Part shown: positions 1 through 9,211 of the stretch, piece by piece | Numbering within the stretch: the stretch's first letter is position 1 | Layout of the letters: each line of letters starts with the position of its first letter | Assembly: GCA_005888595.1 (NCBI GenBank) | Contig: VBAL01000009.1 | Coordinates: 1 to 45,008 of the forward strand | DNA from: Candidatus Segetimicrobium genomatis | GTDB lineage: Bacteria > Sysuimicrobiota > Sysuimicrobiia > Sysuimicrobiales > Kaftiobacteriaceae | Length of the DNA: 45,008 nucleotides | Direction of reading: 5' to 3' | Program-made: the position numbers and the translations under genes | The notes under the pieces: model-generated | Seen by the model: only the letters and a program-made list of their open reading frames with translations | The model's database searches: none | What the model was told of the DNA's origin: nothing

Positions 1-26
1 CCCCGGCCCGGCTGCACTGATCGGCC

Positions 27-635
27 ATGACGACAGTCGCGTCGCCCCCGAACGTGCCGCCGTCGGTCGCGCCGCCGCGACCGGTGGCAACGCGCGGGCC
101 GGAGCCCAAACCGGCCGAAACGGGTGTCTGGGTCGCGATCGCGACCATTTCGATGTCGTTTGCGGCGCTCACCAGTGCCATGGTGGTGCGGGCGAGCGCG
201 GCCCCGGACTGGCAGCATTTTCGGCTGCCGCCGATCCTCTACCTCAACACCCTGGTCCTCCTCGCCTCGAGCTTCACCCTCGCCGCGGCGCGGCGGCGGA
301 TCACTGCTGTCTCGGTACGAGACGGTCTCCCGGGGCTGTACGTCACCCTCGGTCTCGGACTGCTGTTCGTCACCGGGCAGATCCTGGCGTGGCGCCAGCT
401 CGCCGCGCAGGGACTGTTCCTCGCGACGAGCCCCAGCAGCGCGTTTTTCTACGTCTTCACCGCCCTGCATGGGCTCCACGTGCTGGGTGGCCTCGCGGGG
501 TTGCTGTACGTGCTGCGGCGAATCCGTCGGGTCGTTCCCGCGCCCATGACCGCGCTCGGTGCGGCCACGCTGTATTGGCACTTTATGGACGTACTGTGGC
601 TGTACCTGCTCCTGATCCTGATTATTCGGGTGTAA
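27..635 (+). CDS. coxC: Heme-copper (cytochrome c) oxidase subunit III family protein, first copy
   Basis: 202-aa multi-TM protein with FTALHGLHVLGG and LYWHFMD motifs typical of subunit III. Confidence 0.9.
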   Translation: MTTVASPPNVPPSVAPPRPVATRGPEPKPAETGVWVAIATISMSFAALTSAMVVRASAAPDWQHFRLPPILYLNTLVLLASSFTLAAARRRITAVSVRDGLPGLYVTLGLGLLFVTGQILAWRQLAAQGLFLATSPSSAFFYVFTALHGLHVLGGLAGLLYVLRRIRRVVPAPMTALGAATLYWHFMDVLWLYLLLILIIRV

Positions 636-662
636 TCGGCTGCTGGGACGAGGGGAGGCGTT

Positions 663-1292
663 GTGGGCGAGTCTGCGATGACCATGGGAGCCCGACCGGG
701 AGCCTTGATGGAGGAGTCTCCCTACGGCATTCAGTCCAAGAAGCTGGCGATCTGGTTGTTCATCATCGCCGACGCGGCGACATTCGGCGCGATCCTGTTT
801 GCCTATGGCTATCTCCGCGTAGCGAATCCCGACTGGACGAGGCCCTTCGAGTTCTGGCCGACGATCGCGAACGGCATCGCGATGACCGTCGCGCTGCTCA
901 CCAGCAGCCTGACCATGATAGGCGCGGTGCAATCTGCCCAAGCGGGCCGGAAATCCGCCGGTGTGCGCTGGCTCGGCGTCACCATGGCGCTGGGACTCGT
1001 GTTCGTCTTGCTGCTGCTGCGCGAGTGGTCCGGCATGATCGCTGCAGGGTGGCGGCTGTCGCGCAATCCCCTGGGCGGGTCGGTCCTCTTTGGGGCGACG
1101 TTCTTCGGCATCACGGGACTGCACCTGCTGCACGTGATTGCCGGTGTGGTCGCGATCGCCGTCATCGCCAGCGGATTCAACCGCGATCGGCTGGACGCCG
1201 GGCACGTCGAGACGACCGGCCTCTACTGGCATTTTGTCAATTTGGTGCAGCTGTTCGTCTTCCCGCTGGTCTATCTGATGAACGTCCGCTGA
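663..1292 (+). CDS. Heme-copper oxidase subunit III family protein, second copy
   Basis: WLFIIADAATFGA, ITGLHLLHVIAG and GLYWHFVN motifs; GGAGG just upstream of GTG663 (ATG678 is an alternative start). Confidence 0.88.
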   Translation: MGESAMTMGARPGALMEESPYGIQSKKLAIWLFIIADAATFGAILFAYGYLRVANPDWTRPFEFWPTIANGIAMTVALLTSSLTMIGAVQSAQAGRKSAGVRWLGVTMALGLVFVLLLLREWSGMIAAGWRLSRNPLGGSVLFGATFFGITGLHLLHVIAGVVAIAVIASGFNRDRLDAGHVETTGLYWHFVNLVQLFVFPLVYLMNVR

Positions 1293-1319
1293 AGGACAAC
1301 TCGAACGAAAGGGCAGGCC

Positions 1320-1628
1320 ATGGCCGAGGCGCGGCACAGTGCCGGCATGAAACGATACGTGGTCGTCTGGATCGGGTTGATCCTCATTGTGGCCATCGAG
1401 GTGCTGTTGACGTACCAGCACCTGCCGGCGGGCAGGCTGCTCGCGTTCCTCCTGGTGCTCGCGTTCATCGCGGCGGCGCTGGGGGTGATGTACTTCATGC
1501 ATCTGAGGTACGAGCGCGCCAGCCTGTTCTGGAGTCTCATCCCCTACCTCATCTTCGCGCTGTTTATGATGGATCACGTCTGGCCGGACGCGTTCCGTCT
1601 GATGCACCAGCGCCTGCCGGCGCCGTAA
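1320..1628 (+). CDS. Cytochrome c oxidase subunit IV family (caa3-type) membrane protein
   Basis: Three hydrophobic segments and YFMHLRYE motif; follows the subunit III genes. Confidence 0.85.
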   Translation: MAEARHSAGMKRYVVVWIGLILIVAIEVLLTYQHLPAGRLLAFLLVLAFIAAALGVMYFMHLRYERASLFWSLIPYLIFALFMMDHVWPDAFRLMHQRLPAP

Positions 1629-1654
1629 CGCCGCCGAGCGACACTCGCGTGAGC

Positions 1655-1756
1655 ATGGGTGCACTGGTGGGCGGCATGCTCATCCTGACGGGAGCGGCCT
1701 TCTGCCTCGTCGCCGGTATCGCGGTCGCGGCGTACCGCAAACGCAAGCAGGGGTAA
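1655..1756 (+). CDS. 33-aa single-TM protein, putative oxidase accessory subunit
   Basis: MGALVGGMLILTGAAFCLVAGIAVAAYRKRKQG: one hydrophobic helix then a basic tail, 26 nt after subunit IV; it is the 3' end of the otherwise spurious 389..1756 ORF. Confidence 0.5.
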   Translation: MGALVGGMLILTGAAFCLVAGIAVAAYRKRKQG

Positions 1757-1822
1757 GGCGGCCGGTTCGGTGGCTTCTCCCTCAGTGACCGATCTCACAC
1801 AAATTGCGGCTGAATGTCCCAC

Positions 1823-1853
1823 TTGACGGCGGCGCTCCCCCCCCTGTTATCCT
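1823..1853 (+). promoter_or_regulatory. Candidate sigma70-type promoter
   Basis: TTGACG (1823-1828), 19-nt spacer, TG-n-TATCCT (extended -10 at 1845-1853), upstream of the response regulator. Confidence 0.4.
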
Positions 1854-1874
1854 GAGGAATCAGCACTATCTCAC

Positions 1875-1918
1875 GGCCCCGTTGCGCCCGCGAACGGCTC
1901 AACGGGGTCCCTTTTTTT
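1875..1918 (+). promoter_or_regulatory. Hairpin motif copy 1 with 7-U tail (leader attenuator or terminator)
   Basis: ggccccgttg-c-gcc[cgcgaac]ggc-t-caacggggtcc followed by cttttttt; first 19 nt identical to 4881-4899. Confidence 0.7.
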
Positions 1919-1941
1919 GTGCGGAGTCGAGGGCACTCGCG

Positions 1942-2655
1942 ATGCCGTCCCCAGCGCCGCTCCACCCCGCGCCCGCGGTGATCAAGCTCCTCGTCGCCGC
2001 CGACCGCCTCGTCGTGCGCGAGGGCCTCAAGCGCATCGTCACGGAGCCGGGGATGCGGGTAGTCGGCGAGGCGGCCACGCTCGAACAGGTGCTCGACCGG
2101 GCGGCCGATCCAGACGTGCTACTCCTGGACCTGTTCCTCGGGGATCGGAAGACCCTCGCGCTCATCCGCGAGATGAAGCAGCGCCACCCCAGCTGTCGCA
2201 TCCTGGTGATGAACGTGGAAGGCGAAGACCCCGATGCCCTGCGCATCTTGGGAACCGGCGCGGCCGGCTACCTCACCAAGGACTACTCGCGCCGCCAGCT
2301 GCTCGACGCGATCCGGCAGGTCGCAGGCGGCGCATCGTACGTGAGCCCCTCACTGGCCGCGGTGCTGATCTCCGGTCTGCACGGTGGCAAGAAGCGGGGG
2401 CACGAGGCTCTCTCGGATCGGGAATACCAGGTGCTGTGCCTGTTCGGCTCTGGGATTCCGTTCAAGCACATCGCCGCCGAGCTCGGCGTGAGCCCTAAGA
2501 CGGTGAGCACCTACCGCAGTCGGATCCTCGACAAGCTCAAGCTGCGCGGCAACGCGGACATCATTCGCTACGCGATCGAGCACCACCTGGTGCTCGGAGC
2601 AACGCGGCAGCCGCGGCGTCGGAAAACGACGACGCAGCGCTCCGCCGGACTCTGA
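1942..2655 (+). CDS. NarL/FixJ-family response regulator (REC + LuxR HTH)
   Basis: DVLLLDL receiver, GAAGYLTK, LSDREYQVL...IAAELGVSPKTVSTYRSRILDKL; start moved from 1804 to ATG1942. Confidence 0.93.
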   Translation: MPSPAPLHPAPAVIKLLVAADRLVVREGLKRIVTEPGMRVVGEAATLEQVLDRAADPDVLLLDLFLGDRKTLALIREMKQRHPSCRILVMNVEGEDPDALRILGTGAAGYLTKDYSRRQLLDAIRQVAGGASYVSPSLAAVLISGLHGGKKRGHEALSDREYQVLCLFGSGIPFKHIAAELGVSPKTVSTYRSRILDKLKLRGNADIIRYAIEHHLVLGATRQPRRRKTTTQRSAGL

Positions 2656-2787
2656 CGCGGCGCGTCGGACTCTTTGCCTGCTGCGGGCCGCGAATCGCGT
2701 CGCCCCACGAGGCCGGCGGGCCCAACATTGATGCGCCACTCCGCTCCAACCCGCCCGCGAGCCGCACGGCTGCGCTGACGCCACAAC

Positions 2788-2804
2788 GCGGCACCTGCCT
2801 TGCC
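2788..2804 (+). promoter_or_regulatory. Candidate sigma54 (-24/-12) promoter
   Basis: GCGGCACCTGCCTTGCC = GGCA-N6-TTGC with exact GG-N10-GC spacing, 54 nt before ATG2858. Confidence 0.6.
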
Positions 2805-2857
2805 TCTTATGCGAGATGTTCGCGTTCCCATCCACTTCTCTCGCAAAGAAGGACACT

Positions 2858-3907
2858 ATGGCGATTCCACGGAAACCCGTACTCGGTGCGAGCGTGCTCG
2901 TGGCCGTAGCGCTCGCGCTCGCCTGCTCGGAGCGCCCCAATCCGGTGGCGCCCGCGTTTTGGGCGGGTGGGTCCGCAGCCACCCACGCGACCGGTTACAG
3001 CGGTCGCGCCACAGTCGTGCAAGCCAAGGTGCTCGGCGTGTCGACGAAGCTCGGCGACACCGGTCCTCTGCCGTCATCCGGTGGGGCGGAGGAGGCATCG
3101 CTCTTGAACGCGAGCGTCCCCGGGCTGCTCACAGCGGAAGTCGTGCACGCCACCACCGTGGGCCAGGGCAACGCCAGCCGGTCCGAGGCAGCGGTGGCCA
3201 ATGTCACGCTCACGGTCGCCGGGAACACCATCTCGGCGGGCTTTCTGGAGGCGCGCGCGACGGCCATGTGCACCGACAACGGCGCGACGGCGAGCGGCAG
3301 CTCGGACATCGCCACGTTGATCGTCAACAGCCAGACGATCACCGTCTCCGGTGAGCCCAACCAAACCATCTCGTTGCTGGGCGGCGCCGTGCTGATCATC
3401 AATGAGCAGACCAGTGACCGCCCGGGGGACATCACCGTCAACGCGCTGCACGTCAAGGTAGACGACATTACCGATGTCGTCATCTCGTCGGCGCACGCGG
3501 ACATCATGTGTGAGGCCGGCCCGCCGCCGGCCGGCTGCAGCGGCGGCGACTTCGTGACAGGGGGTGGGTGGATCACCCCGTCCGGGGCCAAGGCGAACTT
3601 TGGCGTCGCCGGCGGGATCAAACAGAGCGCGCTCTGGGGCCATTTGGTCTACAACGATCACGGCCCGAACGGCCCGCAGGTGAAGGGCACCGGCGTGACC
3701 GCCTACAGCGTGACTGACGCCGTGACCCGGCACATCGAGGGCACGGCCGAGATAAACGGCCAGGGGGGATTTACGTACAAGGTCGATGTGACCGACAACG
3801 GCGAGCCCGGACGCAACGACTACTTCGCGCTCAGCCTGTCGAACGGCTACGGCGCGAAGGGGTCACTCGACGGCGGCAACATCCAGCTGCACGCACCCTG
3901 CCAGTAG
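2858..3907 (+). CDS. Lipoprotein with choice-of-anchor P-like domain and C-terminal post-COAP-1-like domain
   Basis: RBS aagaagga before ATG2858; signal peptide ending ALALAC; beta-rich body; C-terminal FVTGGGWI...DNGEPG...GGNIQLH. Confidence 0.75.
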   Translation: MAIPRKPVLGASVLVAVALALACSERPNPVAPAFWAGGSAATHATGYSGRATVVQAKVLGVSTKLGDTGPLPSSGGAEEASLLNASVPGLLTAEVVHATTVGQGNASRSEAAVANVTLTVAGNTISAGFLEARATAMCTDNGATASGSSDIATLIVNSQTITVSGEPNQTISLLGGAVLIINEQTSDRPGDITVNALHVKVDDITDVVISSAHADIMCEAGPPPAGCSGGDFVTGGGWITPSGAKANFGVAGGIKQSALWGHLVYNDHGPNGPQVKGTGVTAYSVTDAVTRHIEGTAEINGQGGFTYKVDVTDNGEPGRNDYFALSLSNGYGAKGSLDGGNIQLHAPCQ

Positions 3908-3932
3908 CGGCCCGTACCGGGAACGGAACAGC

Positions 3933-3965
3933 GGGGGCAGGAGCGGCGTAAGGCTTCCTGCCCCC
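3933..3965 (+). terminator. Hairpin after the lipoprotein gene, probable terminator
   Basis: gggggcagga (3933-3942) pairs with tcctgccccc (3956-3965); only a weak pyrimidine tail. Confidence 0.5.
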
Positions 3966-3986
3966 ACTCCTTTCCCGGATCGCGCC

Positions 3987-4493
3987 ATGAGTCACGTGGT
4001 TCCGACCGTACTCCTCCTCGCCTGTTGCGTCGTGGGGCTGGTGCTCGTCCCCCTCGGGCTGCCCGGCTTGTGGCTCATGGTGCTCGGCGTGCTCGGCTAC
4101 GGTTGGCTCACCGCCTTTCGGTCGGTGGGCATGGGCATCTTGGCGCTGGTCGCCGGTCTGGCGCTGCTCGGGGAGGTGATCGAGTGGTGGTTCGGCTTCC
4201 GGTTCGCCGAGCGCTACGGCGGCTCGCGCCGGGCAGGGTGGGGCGCCCTGGTGGGTGGCCTCGTGGGGGCCGCGATCGGCGTGCCCATCCCGATCGTGGG
4301 CAGCGTCATCGGGGCGTTCGTGGGATCCTTCGTCGGAGCCGCGCTACTCGAGTACACGCGCAGCGCGCGGGCGGGCGTCGCGGTGAGCGCGGGTTGGGGA
4401 GCAGTGCTGGGGCGTGGCGCCGCGGCGGCGGTGAAGGTGGCGTTGGGTCTCGTGATCGCCGTGATCGGGGTGCTCGCGCTGCTCAGGACGTGA
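3987..4493 (+). CDS. DUF456 family membrane protein
   Basis: LVPLGLPGLWL and YGGSRRAGWGALVGGLVG glycine-rich helices. Confidence 0.85.
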   Translation: MSHVVPTVLLLACCVVGLVLVPLGLPGLWLMVLGVLGYGWLTAFRSVGMGILALVAGLALLGEVIEWWFGFRFAERYGGSRRAGWGALVGGLVGAAIGVPIPIVGSVIGAFVGSFVGAALLEYTRSARAGVAVSAGWGAVLGRGAAAAVKVALGLVIAVIGVLALLRT

Positions 4494-4731
4494 GCCCGAG
4501 TCGTTTCTCGATGTGTGTCTTCACCGCCGGCGTAATGATCTCGCGCCGCAGCGCGTCCGCGAGTGCCGCGGAGATGGCCGGGCGATCGGCGTCGAGCTTG
4601 CGCTCGCGGAGCTCGCGAATCACGCGCGCGAGGCGCTGGTCGTAGTCGCCGGGTTGCAGCGCGTCGGCGTCCATCTGCTGCTTCAGCTTCTCCAGCTCCT
4701 GGACCAGTCGCTCGACCGAGATAGCCGCCAT
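4483..4731 (-). CDS. 82-aa helical hypothetical protein
   Basis: AGGAGG RBS then ATG4731 (MAAISVERLVQELEKLKQQ...); amphipathic helical pattern; 3' end overlaps DUF456 by 11 nt. Confidence 0.7.
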   Translation of the reverse strand: MAAISVERLVQELEKLKQQMDADALQPGDYDQRLARVIRELRERKLDADRPAISAALADALRREIITPAVKTHIEKRLGLTS

Positions 4732-4880
4732 CAGACGCCTCCTAATGGGGAACGGCACGGTAGGGGCGAAAGGTACAGGCCGACGGTGACGGCGGCTACG
4801 CCAGCCCAGTTGTTGCGTCGCCGCGACGCTTGACTCGCACGCGGGTATTGCGCACCGTAGGGGGCAGTCAGGCAAGTCCT

Positions 4881-4913
4881 GGCCCCGTTGCGCCCGCGAT
4901 TGGCCAACGGGGC
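4881..4913 (+). promoter_or_regulatory. Hairpin motif copy 2 in the leader of the hybrid kinase
   Basis: gccccgttg-c-gcc[cgcgatt]ggc-caacggggc; perfect 9-bp outer stem; TTGACT at 4830. Confidence 0.7.
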
Positions 4914-4940
4914 ATTCATTTTAGGGGGACGCCGCATCAC

Positions 4941-6782
4941 GTGGACGCACAAGCGCTGCTCGACACTCTCGATCTGGGCGTGGTGGTGATCGCTCCCGAC
5001 TGGACGATCGCCCAATGGTCCGCGGCGGCCTGCCGGATCACGGGGCTCACCGCGGATCGGGTGCTGGGCCGAACCTTCTGGGTCGCCTTTCCGACGGCGA
5101 GGGGGACCCACGTCGAACAGGTGCTGCAGGACGTGCTGGCCGACGGCCAACCCCGGACGATTCTCGCCCCGGCTCGCCCGGAATTCCCTGCGCTGGTGTT
5201 CGAGACCCGAGTGACGCGGGGGCCCCGCAACCATCTGGTCATGGCGTTCCGGCAGGTGCGCGAGGAGCTGCCGCCGGAGTCTCGGGCGGCACAGCTCGTC
5301 GACGCGTTCGAGACGGAGCGGCGCCTCTACGTCCAGCTGTTCGCTTCGCTGCCCACGCCCGCGCTGGTGCTCGCCGCGGACGGCCAGATCCTCGATGCCA
5401 ACCCGGAGGGCGCGAGGCTACTGGGCGTGTCGGAGGTGCTGGCGCTGCGGGGGCGCGCGCTCGCCGACTGGGCACCCGCGGCGCAGCGGGCGCCGCTCGC
5501 GGCGGGGCTGCGCGACGCAATCACCCGGCGGCAGGAGCTGCGGTTCACCGTCGAGTTCGCGGGCGAGCCGGCCCGCGACGTGCACGCCGTGGTCGTGAAC
5601 GTGGATCCCGCTCGCGCGGCGCCGACGCTGCTGCTTGTGGCCGTAGACGTGTCGCGCGAGCTGCTGCTCCAGCGGCGGCTGCTGCAGGCCGACCGGCTGT
5701 CGCAGCTCGGCGCGCTGGTGTCCGGGGTGGCGCACGAGCTGAACAATCCGCTCGCCGCGATCGCGGCGTTCGCTGAGCTGCTCGCGGTGGATCCGCCGCA
5801 GCAGACGGACCTCAAGGAGAGTGCCGAGATCATCCGCTGCGAGGCGATGCGGGCCGGCCGGATCGTCCGGACGCTGCTCGATTTCGCCCGCCAGCGGCCG
5901 CGCATGGAGGTGGCGGTCGATCTCGCGGAGATCGTGGAGCGCGTGCTCGCGCTGCAGCGCAGCGCGTTCAAGAAGGCCCGCGTCCGCGTCGTCGTCTCCC
6001 TCCCTGACGATCTGCCCGTCGTCACCGGCGACCCCCAGGAGCTGCAGCAGGTGTTCCTCAACGCGGTCGTCAACGCCCGCCAGGCGATCGACGGCACAGG
6101 TCGTCCCGGCCAGATCACGATCGCCGCCGGACGCACCGATCATCACGTGCTGGTGACGGTGGACGACACGGGGCCCGGCGTGCCCCCCGAGCTGCTGGAG
6201 CGCGTGTTCGAGCCGTTCTTCACGACGAAGGGCGAGCAGGGCACGGGTCTGGGCCTCGCGATCAGCTTCGGTCTGGTCCGGACCATGGGGGGACGGATGT
6301 GGATACAGAACGTCGAAGGCGGCGGTGCCCGGCTCTCGTTCGAGCTGCCGATGGACACGGCCCCCGCCGCCTCCCCGGCGCCGACACCGTTCCAACCCGC
6401 CGCGCGCCCTCTCTCGGTGTTCGTGGTGGACGATGAGGAAGGTGTGCGCCGGGGCATGGTCCTGCTCGCGAAGCGCCTGGGACACGAAGTGACGAGCGTC
6501 GCCGACTTCGCGAGCGCCGCGCAACACCTCGCCGCGCCGGGCGCGCGCTTCGACGCCGTGCTGCTGGACGTGCACCTGGACGAAGACCACACGGGCTTCG
6601 ATCTGTTCGAGCGGCTGCGACTCGCGGGACGGGGCCAGGAGCGTCGTATCGTGTTCACGACCGGGGACTCGATCTCGCCGCAAACTCGCGACGCGCTGCA
6701 GCGCTCCGAGCGCCCCGTCCTTCGCAAACCTTTCAGTCTGGAGGAACTGCGCGAAATGTTGGAGCGCGTAGCGAGCGGGTAA
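4941..6782 (+). CDS. Hybrid sensor histidine kinase (2 PAS + HisKA + HATPase + REC)
   Basis: VAHELNNPL H-box, QVFLNAVVNA N-box, DDTGPG, FEPFFTTK, GTGLGL; receiver VVDDEE...LLDVH...RKPF; start moved to GTG4941. Confidence 0.93.
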   Translation: MDAQALLDTLDLGVVVIAPDWTIAQWSAAACRITGLTADRVLGRTFWVAFPTARGTHVEQVLQDVLADGQPRTILAPARPEFPALVFETRVTRGPRNHLVMAFRQVREELPPESRAAQLVDAFETERRLYVQLFASLPTPALVLAADGQILDANPEGARLLGVSEVLALRGRALADWAPAAQRAPLAAGLRDAITRRQELRFTVEFAGEPARDVHAVVVNVDPARAAPTLLLVAVDVSRELLLQRRLLQADRLSQLGALVSGVAHELNNPLAAIAAFAELLAVDPPQQTDLKESAEIIRCEAMRAGRIVRTLLDFARQRPRMEVAVDLAEIVERVLALQRSAFKKARVRVVVSLPDDLPVVTGDPQELQQVFLNAVVNARQAIDGTGRPGQITIAAGRTDHHVLVTVDDTGPGVPPELLERVFEPFFTTKGEQGTGLGLAISFGLVRTMGGRMWIQNVEGGGARLSFELPMDTAPAASPAPTPFQPAARPLSVFVVDDEEGVRRGMVLLAKRLGHEVTSVADFASAAQHLAAPGARFDAVLLDVHLDEDHTGFDLFERLRLAGRGQERRIVFTTGDSISPQTRDALQRSERPVLRKPFSLEELREMLERVASG

Positions 6783-7142
6783 GCCTGTGGCGACCGGGCC
6801 GCATGTTGAGTGGGGGCTCCACCGTCGCACCCACGCGGCGACCGGCGCTCGCGTAAGTCTCAGTACCACAAGGCTGATGGGCTGGCCTACCCGTGGCATC
6901 CAGCTTGCACGAAGTGGCGTGCGGCTGCGGGGAGCGAGCCAAATTGTGTTGACCACTGCGGCATGGCTCGACGTGCTCGGAGAGCGAGCGCTGCGGGCGC
7001 CACGTGGTGGCTTCGCTCCCCGCGGGCCGCCACCACGGCAAACGTCCCATATGGCACCGGTATGTCGCGCTTGGGCGCCGCAGGCCTCCTAACGGAGGCT
7101 CTCGACCGGGCAGGTTCGGGCACCTGACCGGTACCGAGCCGC

Positions 7143-8009
7143 ATGCCAAATCGGAAGGGTCTCTCCCGTCCGCCGCGTGTTCTCATCGCGAGCGACCAGA
7201 ACCAGAATCTGCGGCAACTGGAGAACGTCCTCGGCCAAGAAGGCTATTCCGTGCTCCGCCTGTATGCGGGCGCCCCGGTACTCGAGCGGGCCCGGGACGT
7301 GCGTCCGGATGTGATCCTGCTCGATGCCAGGCTCGCCGACCGCGACAGCCTCGAGCTGGGCCACGCGCTGCGCGACGATCCGCTGGTCGGCACGAGCACG
7401 CCGATTCTCCTCTTGACGCCGGGCCATCCGACGCCCAAGGACCATAAGGCCGCGCTGCGCGTCGGTATCTGGGAGCTGCTCCCGCTGCCGCTCGACCCCG
7501 ACGAGCTGCTACCGACCCTGGACCGGTACGTCCGCGCCAAGATCGATGCCGACCTCCTACCCCGGGCCAACATGGTGGACGACCTGACGGGCCTGTATAC
7601 GCCGGCGGGCTTGGCACGCCGGGCGCGCGACCTGATCGTCCAGGCCTCCCACCACAACACGTCGGCCGCCTGTGTGGTGTTCGCGCCGGTTCTCGAAGGC
7701 GAGCCGTCGGTCGAGCTGCTGCAGCTCGTCGGGCGCACGTTTCAAGCCGGCGGGCGCCGTTCGGACGCGATCGGACGAGTGGGGCAGGGGGAGTTCGCCG
7801 TGGTCGCGCCGGGCACCGACGCGGTGGGAGCGGTCAAGCTCGCCCAGCGGTTCCGTCGCGCCATGCCGACCCCCGAGCTGCGGGCGGGGTATGACGCCGT
7901 CGGCAACGTTCGCTACACGCCTGTGGATGCGAATGACCTCCTGGCGCATGCCGCTCGCGCCCTGCAACTGGCCAAAGCCGAGGGAAAATGGATTCGAGCG
8001 TTCACGTGA
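7143..8009 (+). CDS. Atypical receiver + degenerate GGDEF domain protein
   Basis: REC with ILLDA but lacking the acidic pair (IASDQ) and the conserved Lys (LLPLP); DDLTGLY and RVGQGEFAVV in place of GG(D/E)EF. Confidence 0.8.
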   Translation: MPNRKGLSRPPRVLIASDQNQNLRQLENVLGQEGYSVLRLYAGAPVLERARDVRPDVILLDARLADRDSLELGHALRDDPLVGTSTPILLLTPGHPTPKDHKAALRVGIWELLPLPLDPDELLPTLDRYVRAKIDADLLPRANMVDDLTGLYTPAGLARRARDLIVQASHHNTSAACVVFAPVLEGEPSVELLQLVGRTFQAGGRRSDAIGRVGQGEFAVVAPGTDAVGAVKLAQRFRRAMPTPELRAGYDAVGNVRYTPVDANDLLAHAARALQLAKAEGKWIRAFT

Positions 8010-8554
8010 ACGAGGTGGCGCTCGCGAGCCGGCTGCGCGAAGTACCCACCCGTGTGCTCCACGGGCTGCGCCGGCGCGCGGCGCTCGCGGCGCTGCGCCG
8101 TCGTCCTCGTGTGACGTCGCTGCTGGTGGTGTGTCACGGCAACCTGTGCCGCAGCCCGTTCGCCGCGGCGCTGTTGCGCGCATCGCTTGCCGTGCGCGGT
8201 GTGCGCGTCGACTCGGCCGGGTTGTCCGGAACCGGTCGACGGTCGTCGCCCGAGGCGGTCGTGGCGGCGGCGCGCTTTGGCATCGATCTCTCCGCTCACC
8301 GGTCGCAACCCCTGACCGGGGACGGTGCCCGAGCGGTCGATCTCATAATCGTCATGGACTCCGTGCAGCGCCGCGAGGTGTGCGATCGCTTCGGGCGGTC
8401 CGAGCGCGACGTCCTCCTGTTGGGCGACCTCGACCCGGAACCACGGGAACCGCGCACGATCCGGGATCCGGTGAACCAGGCACTCACCGTGTTCGAGGAG
8501 ACCTACGCACGGATCGCGCGCTGCGCGCGTGAGCTGGAGCGGGCGATTGGTTAG
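8006..8554 (+). CDS. Low-molecular-weight protein tyrosine phosphatase (Wzb-like)
   Basis: VCHGNLCRS (CX5R) and IRDP motifs; GTGA overlap with the upstream stop supports GTG8006. Confidence 0.9.
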   Translation: MNEVALASRLREVPTRVLHGLRRRAALAALRRRPRVTSLLVVCHGNLCRSPFAAALLRASLAVRGVRVDSAGLSGTGRRSSPEAVVAAARFGIDLSAHRSQPLTGDGARAVDLIIVMDSVQRREVCDRFGRSERDVLLLGDLDPEPREPRTIRDPVNQALTVFEETYARIARCARELERAIG

Positions 8555-8577
8555 CTTGCTGTCGTCAGGAGCGGCCG

Positions 8578-8955
8578 ATGATCCTCGGAGTGGGGCTCGA
8601 CGTCGTGGAGACGGAGCGGATCGCGCGCGCGCTCGCCCTGCACGGGCGGCGGTTCGAGGAGCGAGTCTACACCGCCGCCGAACTGGCGGAGTGCGCCGAG
8701 CGGGCTGACCGGGCCCAAGCGCTGGCCGGCCGCTTCGCCGCCAAGGAGGCCCTGCTCAAAGCCCTGGGCACCGGCTCGGCGCGCGGCATCTCGTTTCAAC
8801 AGGTCGAAGTGGTCCGGGCGGACGGTGGCAGCCCTACCATGAGCCTGACGGGATCAGCGGCGGCCGAGGCCCGCCGCAAGGGCGTGCGACAGCTTCACGT
8901 GAGCCTCAGCCATCAGCCGGGCCTGGCCGCGGCGGTGGTCATTCTCGAAGGCTGA
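8578..8955 (+). CDS. acpS: Holo-ACP synthase (AcpS-type PPTase)
   Basis: GVGLDVVE, RFAAKEALLKALGTG, VSLSH; 125 aa. Confidence 0.93.
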   Translation: MILGVGLDVVETERIARALALHGRRFEERVYTAAELAECAERADRAQALAGRFAAKEALLKALGTGSARGISFQQVEVVRADGGSPTMSLTGSAAAEARRKGVRQLHVSLSHQPGLAAAVVILEG

Positions 8956-9211
8956 GCTTGGTGCCGTTCCGAGATTTGGTCGCCACGAAGCGGGCGATGC
9001 TGGCGATAGTCCGAAAGTTATCGATCTCGAGATCCTCGAGCGACACGTGAACGCCGAAGTCCTGTTCCAGATGGGCCAGGAATTCGACGAACGTGAGCGA
9101 GTCGACGAGCCCCGTATCGATTAAGTCCGTCTCGAGCGACGGAACCTGCACGTTCAGCTTGTCCGAGAACAGGACGGCAATCCGGCGCTCGAGGTTCGTG
9201 GAGTCCGGCAT
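8939..9211 (-). CDS. Acyl/aminoacyl carrier protein (DltC-like)
   Basis: Acidic 90-aa protein with GLVDSL phosphopantetheine site. Confidence 0.88.
   Translation of the reverse strand: MPDSTNLERRIAVLFSDKLNVQVPSLETDLIDTGLVDSLTFVEFLAHLEQDFGVHVSLEDLEIDNFRTIASIARFVATKSRNGTKLSLRE

Follow-up and report, generated by a model that had tools for sequence, protein, structure and literature searches.

A Conserved Hairpin Upstream of Two-Component and Secreted-Protein Genes in Gemmatimonadales as a Candidate RNA Control Element

Two Copies of a Hairpin at One Locus

The 45,008-nt stretch of DNA analyzed here (the window; positions 1 to 45,008 of contig VBAL01000009.1, assembly GCA_005888595.1, assigned to Candidatus Segetimicrobium genomatis) carries two copies of a short GC-rich hairpin, each of them ahead of a gene for a two-component signaling protein. 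Copy 1 (1875..1909, + strand) precedes a NarL/LuxR-type response regulator composed of a REC domain and a GerE helix-turn-helix (HTH) domain (1942..2655, + strand; Pfam and NCBIfam matches), and copy 2 (4881..4914, + strand) precedes a hybrid histidine kinase with the domain order PAS-PAS-HisKA-HATPase-REC (4941..6782, + strand; Pfam matches). That both genes belong to two-component systems had been proposed in an initial annotation made from the sequence alone, which had also pointed to a 19-mer shared by the two leaders, and GGCCCCGTTGCGCCCGCGA does occur exactly at 1875-1893 and 4881-4899, both times on the + strand. Allowing up to three mismatches yielded no further match within the window, none of 100 shuffled sequences contained two matches, and no third copy of either the 19-mer or the hairpin was found in the 2.94-Mb assembly of the window's own genome.

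Both copies fold in the way the initial annotation had drawn them, with an outer stem closed by CAACGGGG, an inner gcc/ggc stem and a cGCGA loop. The outer stem pairs CCCCGTTG with CAACGGGG over 9–10 bp and is extended at its base by GG/CC; inside it lies a bulged C in copy 2 vs. a 1x1 C/U internal loop in copy 1, followed by the inner GCC/GGC stem and a 7-nt loop reading CGCGAAC or CGCGATT. Specifically, copy 1 (type A in the classification below) has a 10-bp outer stem, the internal loop C1885/U1899, GCC/GGC and the loop CGCGAAC, and copy 2 (type B) is paired over 4882-4913 with the bulge at C4891 and the loop CGCGATT. Predicted folding energies of the two hairpins are −24.4 and −25.4 kcal/mol, and their scores under covariance model R1 are 59.7 bits (copy 1) and 54.1 bits (copy 2). 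Copy 1 runs into a T-rich tail, CCTTTTTTTG (1910..1919, + strand), which contains the seven-U run ascribed to this copy (T7 at 1912-1918, also detected by a terminator scan), and copy 2 is followed by the tail ATTCATTTTA. Outside the hairpin the leaders of copies 1 and 2 could not be aligned, and their likeness is limited to the hairpin itself. The placement of copy 2 in a divergent intergenic region was borne out as well, the gene upstream of it being probably an 82-codon open reading frame (ORF) on the opposite strand (4483-4731, − strand).

Distribution of the Hairpin and the Genes It Precedes

Model building and scanning of genomes across the phylum, which the initial annotation had suggested as a check, recovered the element as a family that stands ahead of genes at one to three copies per genome. 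A pattern scan with a degenerate motif, applied to a single genome of each species, gave 72 loci, among which 33 matches from 29 assemblies had a common loop and the GGC/GCC extension of the stem, neither of which was demanded by the pattern. The assemblies concerned were labeled mostly as Gemmatimonadetes/Gemmatimonadales, the exceptions being a “Bacillati bacterium ANGP1” and an “uncultured bacterium.” From 32 copies a covariance model was built and run on 401 evenly sampled genomes of Gemmatimonadales; it located the element in 22 of them (about 17 strong), again with one to three copies each. Metagenome contigs were scanned with a 16-mer that represents only the 5′ half, giving 122 matches; the 3′ arm was present in 31, all 31 of which lay ahead of the same genes, and the remaining matches, having neither the 3′ arm nor such a neighbor, were taken as chance occurrences. 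Altogether, 76 model matches were collected (65 of them distinct), representing about 30 or more species of Gemmatimonadales metagenome-assembled genomes (MAGs), from 29 species-representative assemblies plus the metagenome contigs.

Every confident copy lies on the sense strand, with the start of the hairpin 54–83 nt before the downstream start codon (as located by tblastn with the window proteins) and its end about 20–35 nt ahead of it. Matches mainly downstream of genes, which the initial annotation had named as the outcome that would speak against its proposal, were not what we obtained; the copies stand in sense orientation upstream of the same orthologous genes. Type A hairpins, with GGCU-CAACGGGG on the 3′ side, precede orthologs of the regulator (53–76% identity), and type B hairpins, with GGC-CAACGGGG on the 3′ side, precede orthologs of the hybrid kinase (60–75% identity). 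Types C and D are found ahead of genes for a secreted protein of about 215 amino acids (aa) with the motif GNGAPSGxHxxLNIIGV, and a single copy precedes the gene of a vWA protein. At locus L203, regulator operon and 215-aa gene face away from each other, and each has its own hairpin copy on its sense strand; in some genomes in which regulator and kinase are on different contigs the element is still ahead of each. Beyond the regulator, the kinase and a secreted 349-aa protein encoded next to the regulator (sec349, described below), no other recurrent neighbor genes were found at element loci. The element is not present ahead of distant regulator paralogs (37% identity) and of some orthologs.

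Some members of these gene classes have features of their own. Proteins of the ~215-aa secreted family (L127:1575-2219, L043:5633-6280, and relatives) begin with a signal peptide followed by GNGAPSGxH(Y/F)xLNIIGV; they had no Pfam or NCBIfam match, and the family is absent from the window's genome. Type D leaders (L043:5547-5590, L105, L193, and L203:4715-4750) show a second conserved block after the hairpin, GTTTCAG.GGCTGCGGCGCCCCAGGACGGTGGGTC, which may be a further leader element. Behind the type B hairpin at L116:1501-1545 lies an ORF that has the MDAK start of the kinases but diverges afterwards, and which may be a frameshifted or decayed kinase gene.

The statement that the hairpin belongs to no named family also held. 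None of the 4227 models of Rfam 15 overlapped the hairpins in window positions 1-9000 at E-values up to 10, none matched at the hairpins of four other loci (L043, L203, L127, and L033) at E-values up to 1, and a full-text literature search found no description of the element. Given its recurrence across genomes, we regard the repeated hairpin as real and as a promising candidate for an RNA control element not described before.

Taxonomic Origin of the Contig

Within the GTDB phylum to which the window's genome is assigned (94 species), the motif was found only in that genome, in a genome of the same genus (G021) and in one weak match. In G021 an identical 5′ arm and loop start lie directly ahead of a kinase ortholog whose coding sequence is 74% identical at the DNA level; the upstream gene is a different one, and there is no T tract. 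The Cox3 protein encoded in the window (cox3, 663-1292) is 74–80% identical to the copies of motif-bearing Gemmatimonadales MAGs but only 39–42% identical to the copies found in the genus, family and order of its own genome, and a second, “native-type” cox3 is present in the same genome on contig C206. The window contig (C164) is also an outlier in tetranucleotide composition, with only four of 90 contigs lying farther from the genome mean. Because of the affinities of Cox3, the second cox3 on C206 and the deviating tetranucleotide profile, C164 is most likely a mis-binned Gemmatimonadales contig; its recent transfer into the genome is less likely. The 6.9-kb contig of G021 is probably a mis-binned Gemmatimonadales contig likewise.

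Promoter-Like Elements Upstream of the Hairpin

Sequence elements around the hairpin follow a regular order: putative transcription-factor site, predicted −35 and −10, hairpin, T-rich tract, Shine-Dalgarno sequence and start codon. In type A loci, the promoter-like arrangement cacTTGACg, N16-19, TAnnnT is found in 17 of 19 cases, with the −10 ending 13–31 nt before the hairpin (mostly 20–24 nt; 66 nt in two loci). In the window, the regulator promoter consists of a −35-like TTGACG (1823..1828, + strand) and, after a 19-nt spacer, a −10-like TATCCT (1848..1853, + strand; aligned with TAATCT, TAGTGT, and TACTCT in orthologous loci) that ends 21 nt before the hairpin, and transcription of the regulator would be predicted to start near 1860. 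The kinase (type B) promoter has a −35-like TTGACT (4830..4835, + strand) and no canonical −10. TTGAC had been reported 51–52 nt before each copy, and we measured 52 nt from 1823 and 51 nt from 4830; among the type B loci, it is found 40–95 nt (mostly 51–75 nt) upstream of the hairpin in 38 of 43. No canonical −10 was found in type B loci, and the poor −10 remarked on for copy 2 is thus shared by the whole kinase-type subfamily.

Upstream of the regulator promoter of the window lies GTGACCGATCTCAC (1785..1798, + strand), a palindrome of the CRP/FNR type, GTGA-N6-TCAC, and a putative transcription-factor site. Of 70 distinct promoters, 31 have such a palindrome in the 160 nt preceding the hairpin, vs. 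0.005 expected (about 90-fold over background). It is located upstream of the −35 in promoters of the regulator, the kinase and the secreted-protein genes, and in those ~215-aa gene promoters that have it, the site is exactly 76–77 nt ahead of the hairpin. The kinase promoter of the window is abutted by another palindromic box, TTGCGTCGCCGCGACGC (4813..4829, + strand), likewise a putative transcription-factor site. In kinase-type promoters TTGCGYCNNCGC recurs about 27 nt upstream of TTGAC (22 of 43), and the box amounts to a near-perfect palindrome, TTGCGTCGACGC, with the window form GCGTCGC-C-GCGACGC, resembling ComA and NarL boxes. This TTGCGTCGACGC palindrome may be the real DNA site of the regulator, and kinase promoters tend to carry either a box of this type or GTGA-N6-TCAC. 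Because these promoter-like boxes precede the hairpin, we place it in the leader RNA, where it would form about 15–40 nt downstream of the transcription start and occupy roughly +15 to +50.

Conservation of Sequence and Pairing

Although the proteins encoded downstream are only 55–75% identical and the flanking leader sequences cannot be aligned, the 19-nt block is almost invariant, and conservation of the 5′ arm and of the first loop nucleotides (CGCGA) far exceeds the needs of a plain terminator. The core pairs (columns 7–16) are formed in 95–100% of the 65 distinct sequences. Covariation comprises one compensatory change from U-A to G-C, and the stem-closing pair may be G-C, A-U, C-G or G·U. 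For the analysis of stem substitutions, each variant was counted once per gene class. Single-sided transitions then led to sense-strand G·U pairs in at least eight cases, vs. one A·C (one-sided binomial p ∼ 0.02 against a null ratio of 1:1, as expected without RNA pairing), and the 5′ arm showed none of the mirror-image changes that should be equally frequent if the site were a symmetric pair of DNA half-sites. The two arms are unequally constrained, with at least 13 independent changes in the 3′ arm vs. two in the 5′ arm, and they are 14–17 nt apart, a variation tolerable for a hairpin but not easily for an operator with two half-sites.

Orientation relative to the gene is identical in all 76 model matches, and the distance from hairpin to start codon is kept more tightly than that from hairpin to promoter. 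Of the 10 nt after the stem, an average of 6.5 are T in type A and 5.2 in the remaining types, in DNA of about 65–70% GC; the tail of a terminator-like hairpin after sec349, on the same contig, is equally imperfect.

Neighboring Genes

The remaining genes near the two hairpins include one for cytochrome oxidase subunit IV (1320-1628), upstream of the regulator, and a DUF456 gene (3987-4493). Between regulator and DUF456 gene lies sec349 (2858..3907, + strand), encoding a secreted choice-of-anchor P / post-COAP-1 protein of 349 aa (NCBIfam NF040603 and NF041523), and in about 20 loci a gene of this type follows the regulator ortholog in syntenic position. Terminator-like hairpins stand behind both sec349 (∼3933-3965) and the regulator (2651-2670), with the imperfect U tails ACUCCUUUCCC and ACUCUUUGCC, respectively, which suggests that terminators of this lineage lack clean U tracts. 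Given these hairpins and the 200-nt gap between the two genes, the regulator and sec349 may be transcribed as two separate units.

The start codon of the regulator is uncertain, with ATG 1942 and GTG 1978 as the two candidates. The ATG at 1942 is replaced by ATC in three orthologs, yet the residues that follow it, P(L/R)H(P/T), remain in frame; other orthologs begin at the M/V-IKLL position, which corresponds to GTG 1978 in the window. At the other end, 13 of 18 regulator orthologs have a conserved tail after the HTH domain, PRRRKSPTD.SAGL (window 2590-2655, the C-terminus), which is basic and RRxS-like.

Comparison With Known Systems

In kind, the element resembles protein-controlled leader hairpins (ANTAR, RAT, boxB) and orphan hairpin motifs. 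Leader terminators are placed under RNA-binding antiterminators by the ANTAR proteins EutV and AmiR, by BglG and SacY acting with RAT, and by lambda N acting with boxB. The element shares with all three a small 5′-leader hairpin beside a U-rich tract, with sequence conservation in the loop and along one side of the stem, and with ANTAR/EutV the distribution of one hairpin over several units of a regulon that include the signaling genes themselves, as in eut. ANTAR leaders have two tandem hairpins with hexanucleotide loops (A1, G4), the second overlapping a terminator, whereas here there is a single hairpin with a 7–8-nt loop starting CGCGA, no second conserved helix and no overlap of antiterminator and terminator, and the output domain of the linked regulator is of the DNA-binding GerE/LuxR type. 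The element carries neither RAT nor boxB sequences. LoaP and RfaH are specialized NusG paralogs that act on a leader hairpin or on ops elements; here too a short, sequence-specific leader element would serve few operons per genome at a stage after initiation, but the element has no similarity to the ops sequence.

Autoregulatory boxes of response regulators, such as the Pho box, NarL heptamers and the ComA box TTGCGG-N4-CCGCAA, are comparable in that the element stands ahead of kinase, regulator and putative targets and has palindromic arms. Unlike such boxes, it lies downstream of the predicted −10, in one orientation, with variable spacing, a T-rich tail and a bias toward G·U, and kinase promoters have a separate, ComA-box-like palindrome upstream. 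A Rho-independent terminator also consists of a GC-rich stem-loop and T-rich sequence, to which type A hairpins and copy 1 conform, whereas type B averages 5.2 T in the 10 nt and includes six copies with only 3 T, but the element occupies the 5′ leader between promoter boxes and start codon and occurs in divergent intergenic regions as well. Repetitive REP elements number tens to hundreds per genome, vs. one to three copies here with fixed gene partners and a loop and stem conserved across genera; a dispersed repeat was rejected, only two copies being present in the window's own genome. Orphan cis-regulatory hairpin motifs are known from comparative genomics (e.g., Weinberg et al., 2017, PMC5737381; the “motif” families of Rfam). 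Like these, the element is a small conserved hairpin, restricted to a clade and a narrow set of genes and known only from sequence comparison; it differs in being outside Rfam 15 and in its gene set, a two-component system together with secreted proteins.

A Possible Leader Attenuator and Its Alternatives

From the conservation of the loop, the initial annotation had suggested a protein-binding or attenuator element, and with a conserved loop and 5′ arm and promoter boxes upstream this appears to be the best-supported reading. We favor, with moderate confidence, a cis-regulatory role at the RNA level, as a factor-dependent leader attenuator or an RNA operator; the termination component is less certain than the RNA-level role as such. 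The hairpin would be a transcribed part of the 5′ leader, followed by a U/G-rich tract, and would mark a small regulon in one clade of Gemmatimonadales, comprising the regulator with its choice-of-anchor-P neighbor, the kinase, the ~215-aa secreted protein and occasionally other genes. By default, the GC-rich hairpin with its U-rich tail would stop or pause RNA polymerase, or would hinder the downstream ribosome-binding site. Because all copies share the hairpin together with an unvarying 5′ arm, bulge and CGCGA at the start of the loop, it would be a site read by a trans-acting factor, through which the block may be relieved or reinforced. Kinase, regulator and target genes would thereby be set together after transcription initiation. 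Transcription of the hairpin, termination or antitermination at it and the existence of a binding factor are what we infer from these comparisons of sequence.

Several additional components were considered and rejected. Leader pairings of YUCC with GGAG and of GCAC with GUGC, seen by eye or in the fold of the window, are not conserved. A pseudoknot or kissing interaction through the CGCG loop was discarded, since conservation does not extend to the complement ahead of the window ATG, and loop variants with CGCA or CACGA no longer contain the CGCG palindrome. The reading frame of a putative leader peptide would be shifted by the variation in loop length. A conserved neighbor gene as the trans-acting factor was likewise rejected, with only the regulator, sec349 and kinase recurring.

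A number of observations weigh against an RNA-level role. The core stem shows minimal covariation, both arms being nearly invariant, and such constancy of a double-stranded sequence is seen more typically at DNA sites than in RNA helices; the stem also tolerates six transversion mismatches. Seven or eight kinase-type copies have poor tails, with 3 T in 10 nt, and intrinsic termination is therefore not a universal or the sole function. RNAalifold applied to the leaders returned the hairpin only, with no second conserved helix or antiterminator, and a self-contained riboswitch is therefore unlikely; conservation is confined to the 35-nt hairpin and the downstream genes are non-metabolic, leaving a small pseudoknotted aptamer as a possibility. 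A single regulator is consistently associated with the element, and it is a response regulator that binds DNA; no candidate for an RNA-binding partner was found encoded near the element loci. The ANTAR domain (PF03861) was detected in none of 18 motif-bearing genomes and in three of 18 genomes without the motif, and an ANTAR system was rejected on this ground. The NusG N-terminal domain (PF02357) gave at most one match per genome in 36 genomes with and without the motif; with no extra paralog present, antitermination of the RfaH/LoaP type was rejected as well.

A serious rival reading is that the element is a DNA operator, an interrupted palindrome CCCCGTTG-c-GCC...GGC-CAACGGGG bound by the NarL-type regulator or another factor, with the RNA hairpin incidental. 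From its place downstream of the promoter, such an operator would impose negative autoregulation on the regulator, the kinase and the target genes. A box common to kinase, regulator and targets is the classic signature of a regulator's own site, the arms are conserved in sequence and not merely in pairing, the consistently linked proteins are only the kinase and the DNA-binding regulator, and the 5′ block, read by eye, matches the NarL/ComA-box-like TTGCGTCGACGC at 10 of 13 positions. We nevertheless consider a DNA operator rather unlikely. It leaves unaccounted for the single orientation of all 76 matches, a position beyond the predicted −10 (in 17 of the 19 loci of type A) and not at or upstream of the promoter, an arm spacing that is not fixed (14–17 bp), and the T-rich tail kept beside the 3′ arm. 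A symmetric dimer would not predict changes in the 3′ arm (at least 13) to outnumber those in the 5′ arm (2), nor would such a site call for the 8:1 excess of transitions toward sense-strand G·U, and better-placed candidate palindromes, GTGA-N6-TCAC and the TTGCGYCNNCGC box, lie upstream of the −35.

We think it quite improbable that the hairpin is a constitutive leader structure without a switch, whether a stem-loop that stabilizes or processes the mRNA, a fixed partial terminator holding expression of these signaling genes low, or an insulator that blocks readthrough out of upstream genes in the same direction. Its stability, high GC content and U-rich tail would suit the hairpin to such a role, no alternative fold or partner protein was found, and many kinase-type copies follow about 90–130 nt after a long co-directional ORF, as judged by gene calls from GC content at third codon positions (GC3), a census of upstream-gene orientation too crude for reliance. 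It would leave unexplained, however, the near-invariance of 19 nt including bulge and loop at 55–75% protein identity and the restriction to three or four gene families, and for copies in divergent intergenic regions (window copy 2, G021, and L203) there is no upstream source of readthrough to be blocked. Two direct copies 3 kb apart, with none elsewhere in the genome, might also suggest that the repeats on either side of the 3-kb segment 1875-4913 arose by local duplication or by chance, or that they are the ends of a mobile element. The segment contains no mobility genes, the similarity of the copies ends with the hairpin, and the element stands ahead of orthologous genes in dozens of genomes; these comparative data refute an origin by duplication or mobility, to which we assign next to no probability.

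Within the RNA-level reading that we favor, a more far-reaching version would have the regulon itself defined at the RNA level, by a sequence-specific RNA-binding factor that recognizes the hairpin on the nascent leaders of kinase, regulator and secreted-protein genes and chooses between termination and readthrough, an antitermination that works without ANTAR, BglG or a NusG paralog. We hold this version to be unlikely. The factor might conceivably be the NarL-type regulator itself, acting through the basic C-terminal tail (PRRRKSPTD) of most orthologs; the tail as a required RNA-binding arm was rejected, being missing in six of 18 orthologs that still have the hairpin.

Implications

To our knowledge, almost nothing is known of gene regulation in the Gemmatimonadota, abundant and largely uncultured soil bacteria, and we know of no RNA regulator characterized in them. 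The element, sharply delimited and highly conserved, connects a PAS hybrid kinase of the cytoplasm with a NarL-type regulator and with secreted proteins of the choice-of-anchor-P type. It can be used as a regulon signature in annotation and, in the form of a short RNA (or DNA), as bait in the search for its binding partner. Were it only a DNA operator or a structural stem-loop, it would still be a useful regulon marker, but an ordinary one. As an RNA-level element it would be a possible case of post-initiation control on top of a two-component system with a DNA-binding regulator, and if the regulon proved to be defined at the RNA level, it would constitute a new antitermination system.

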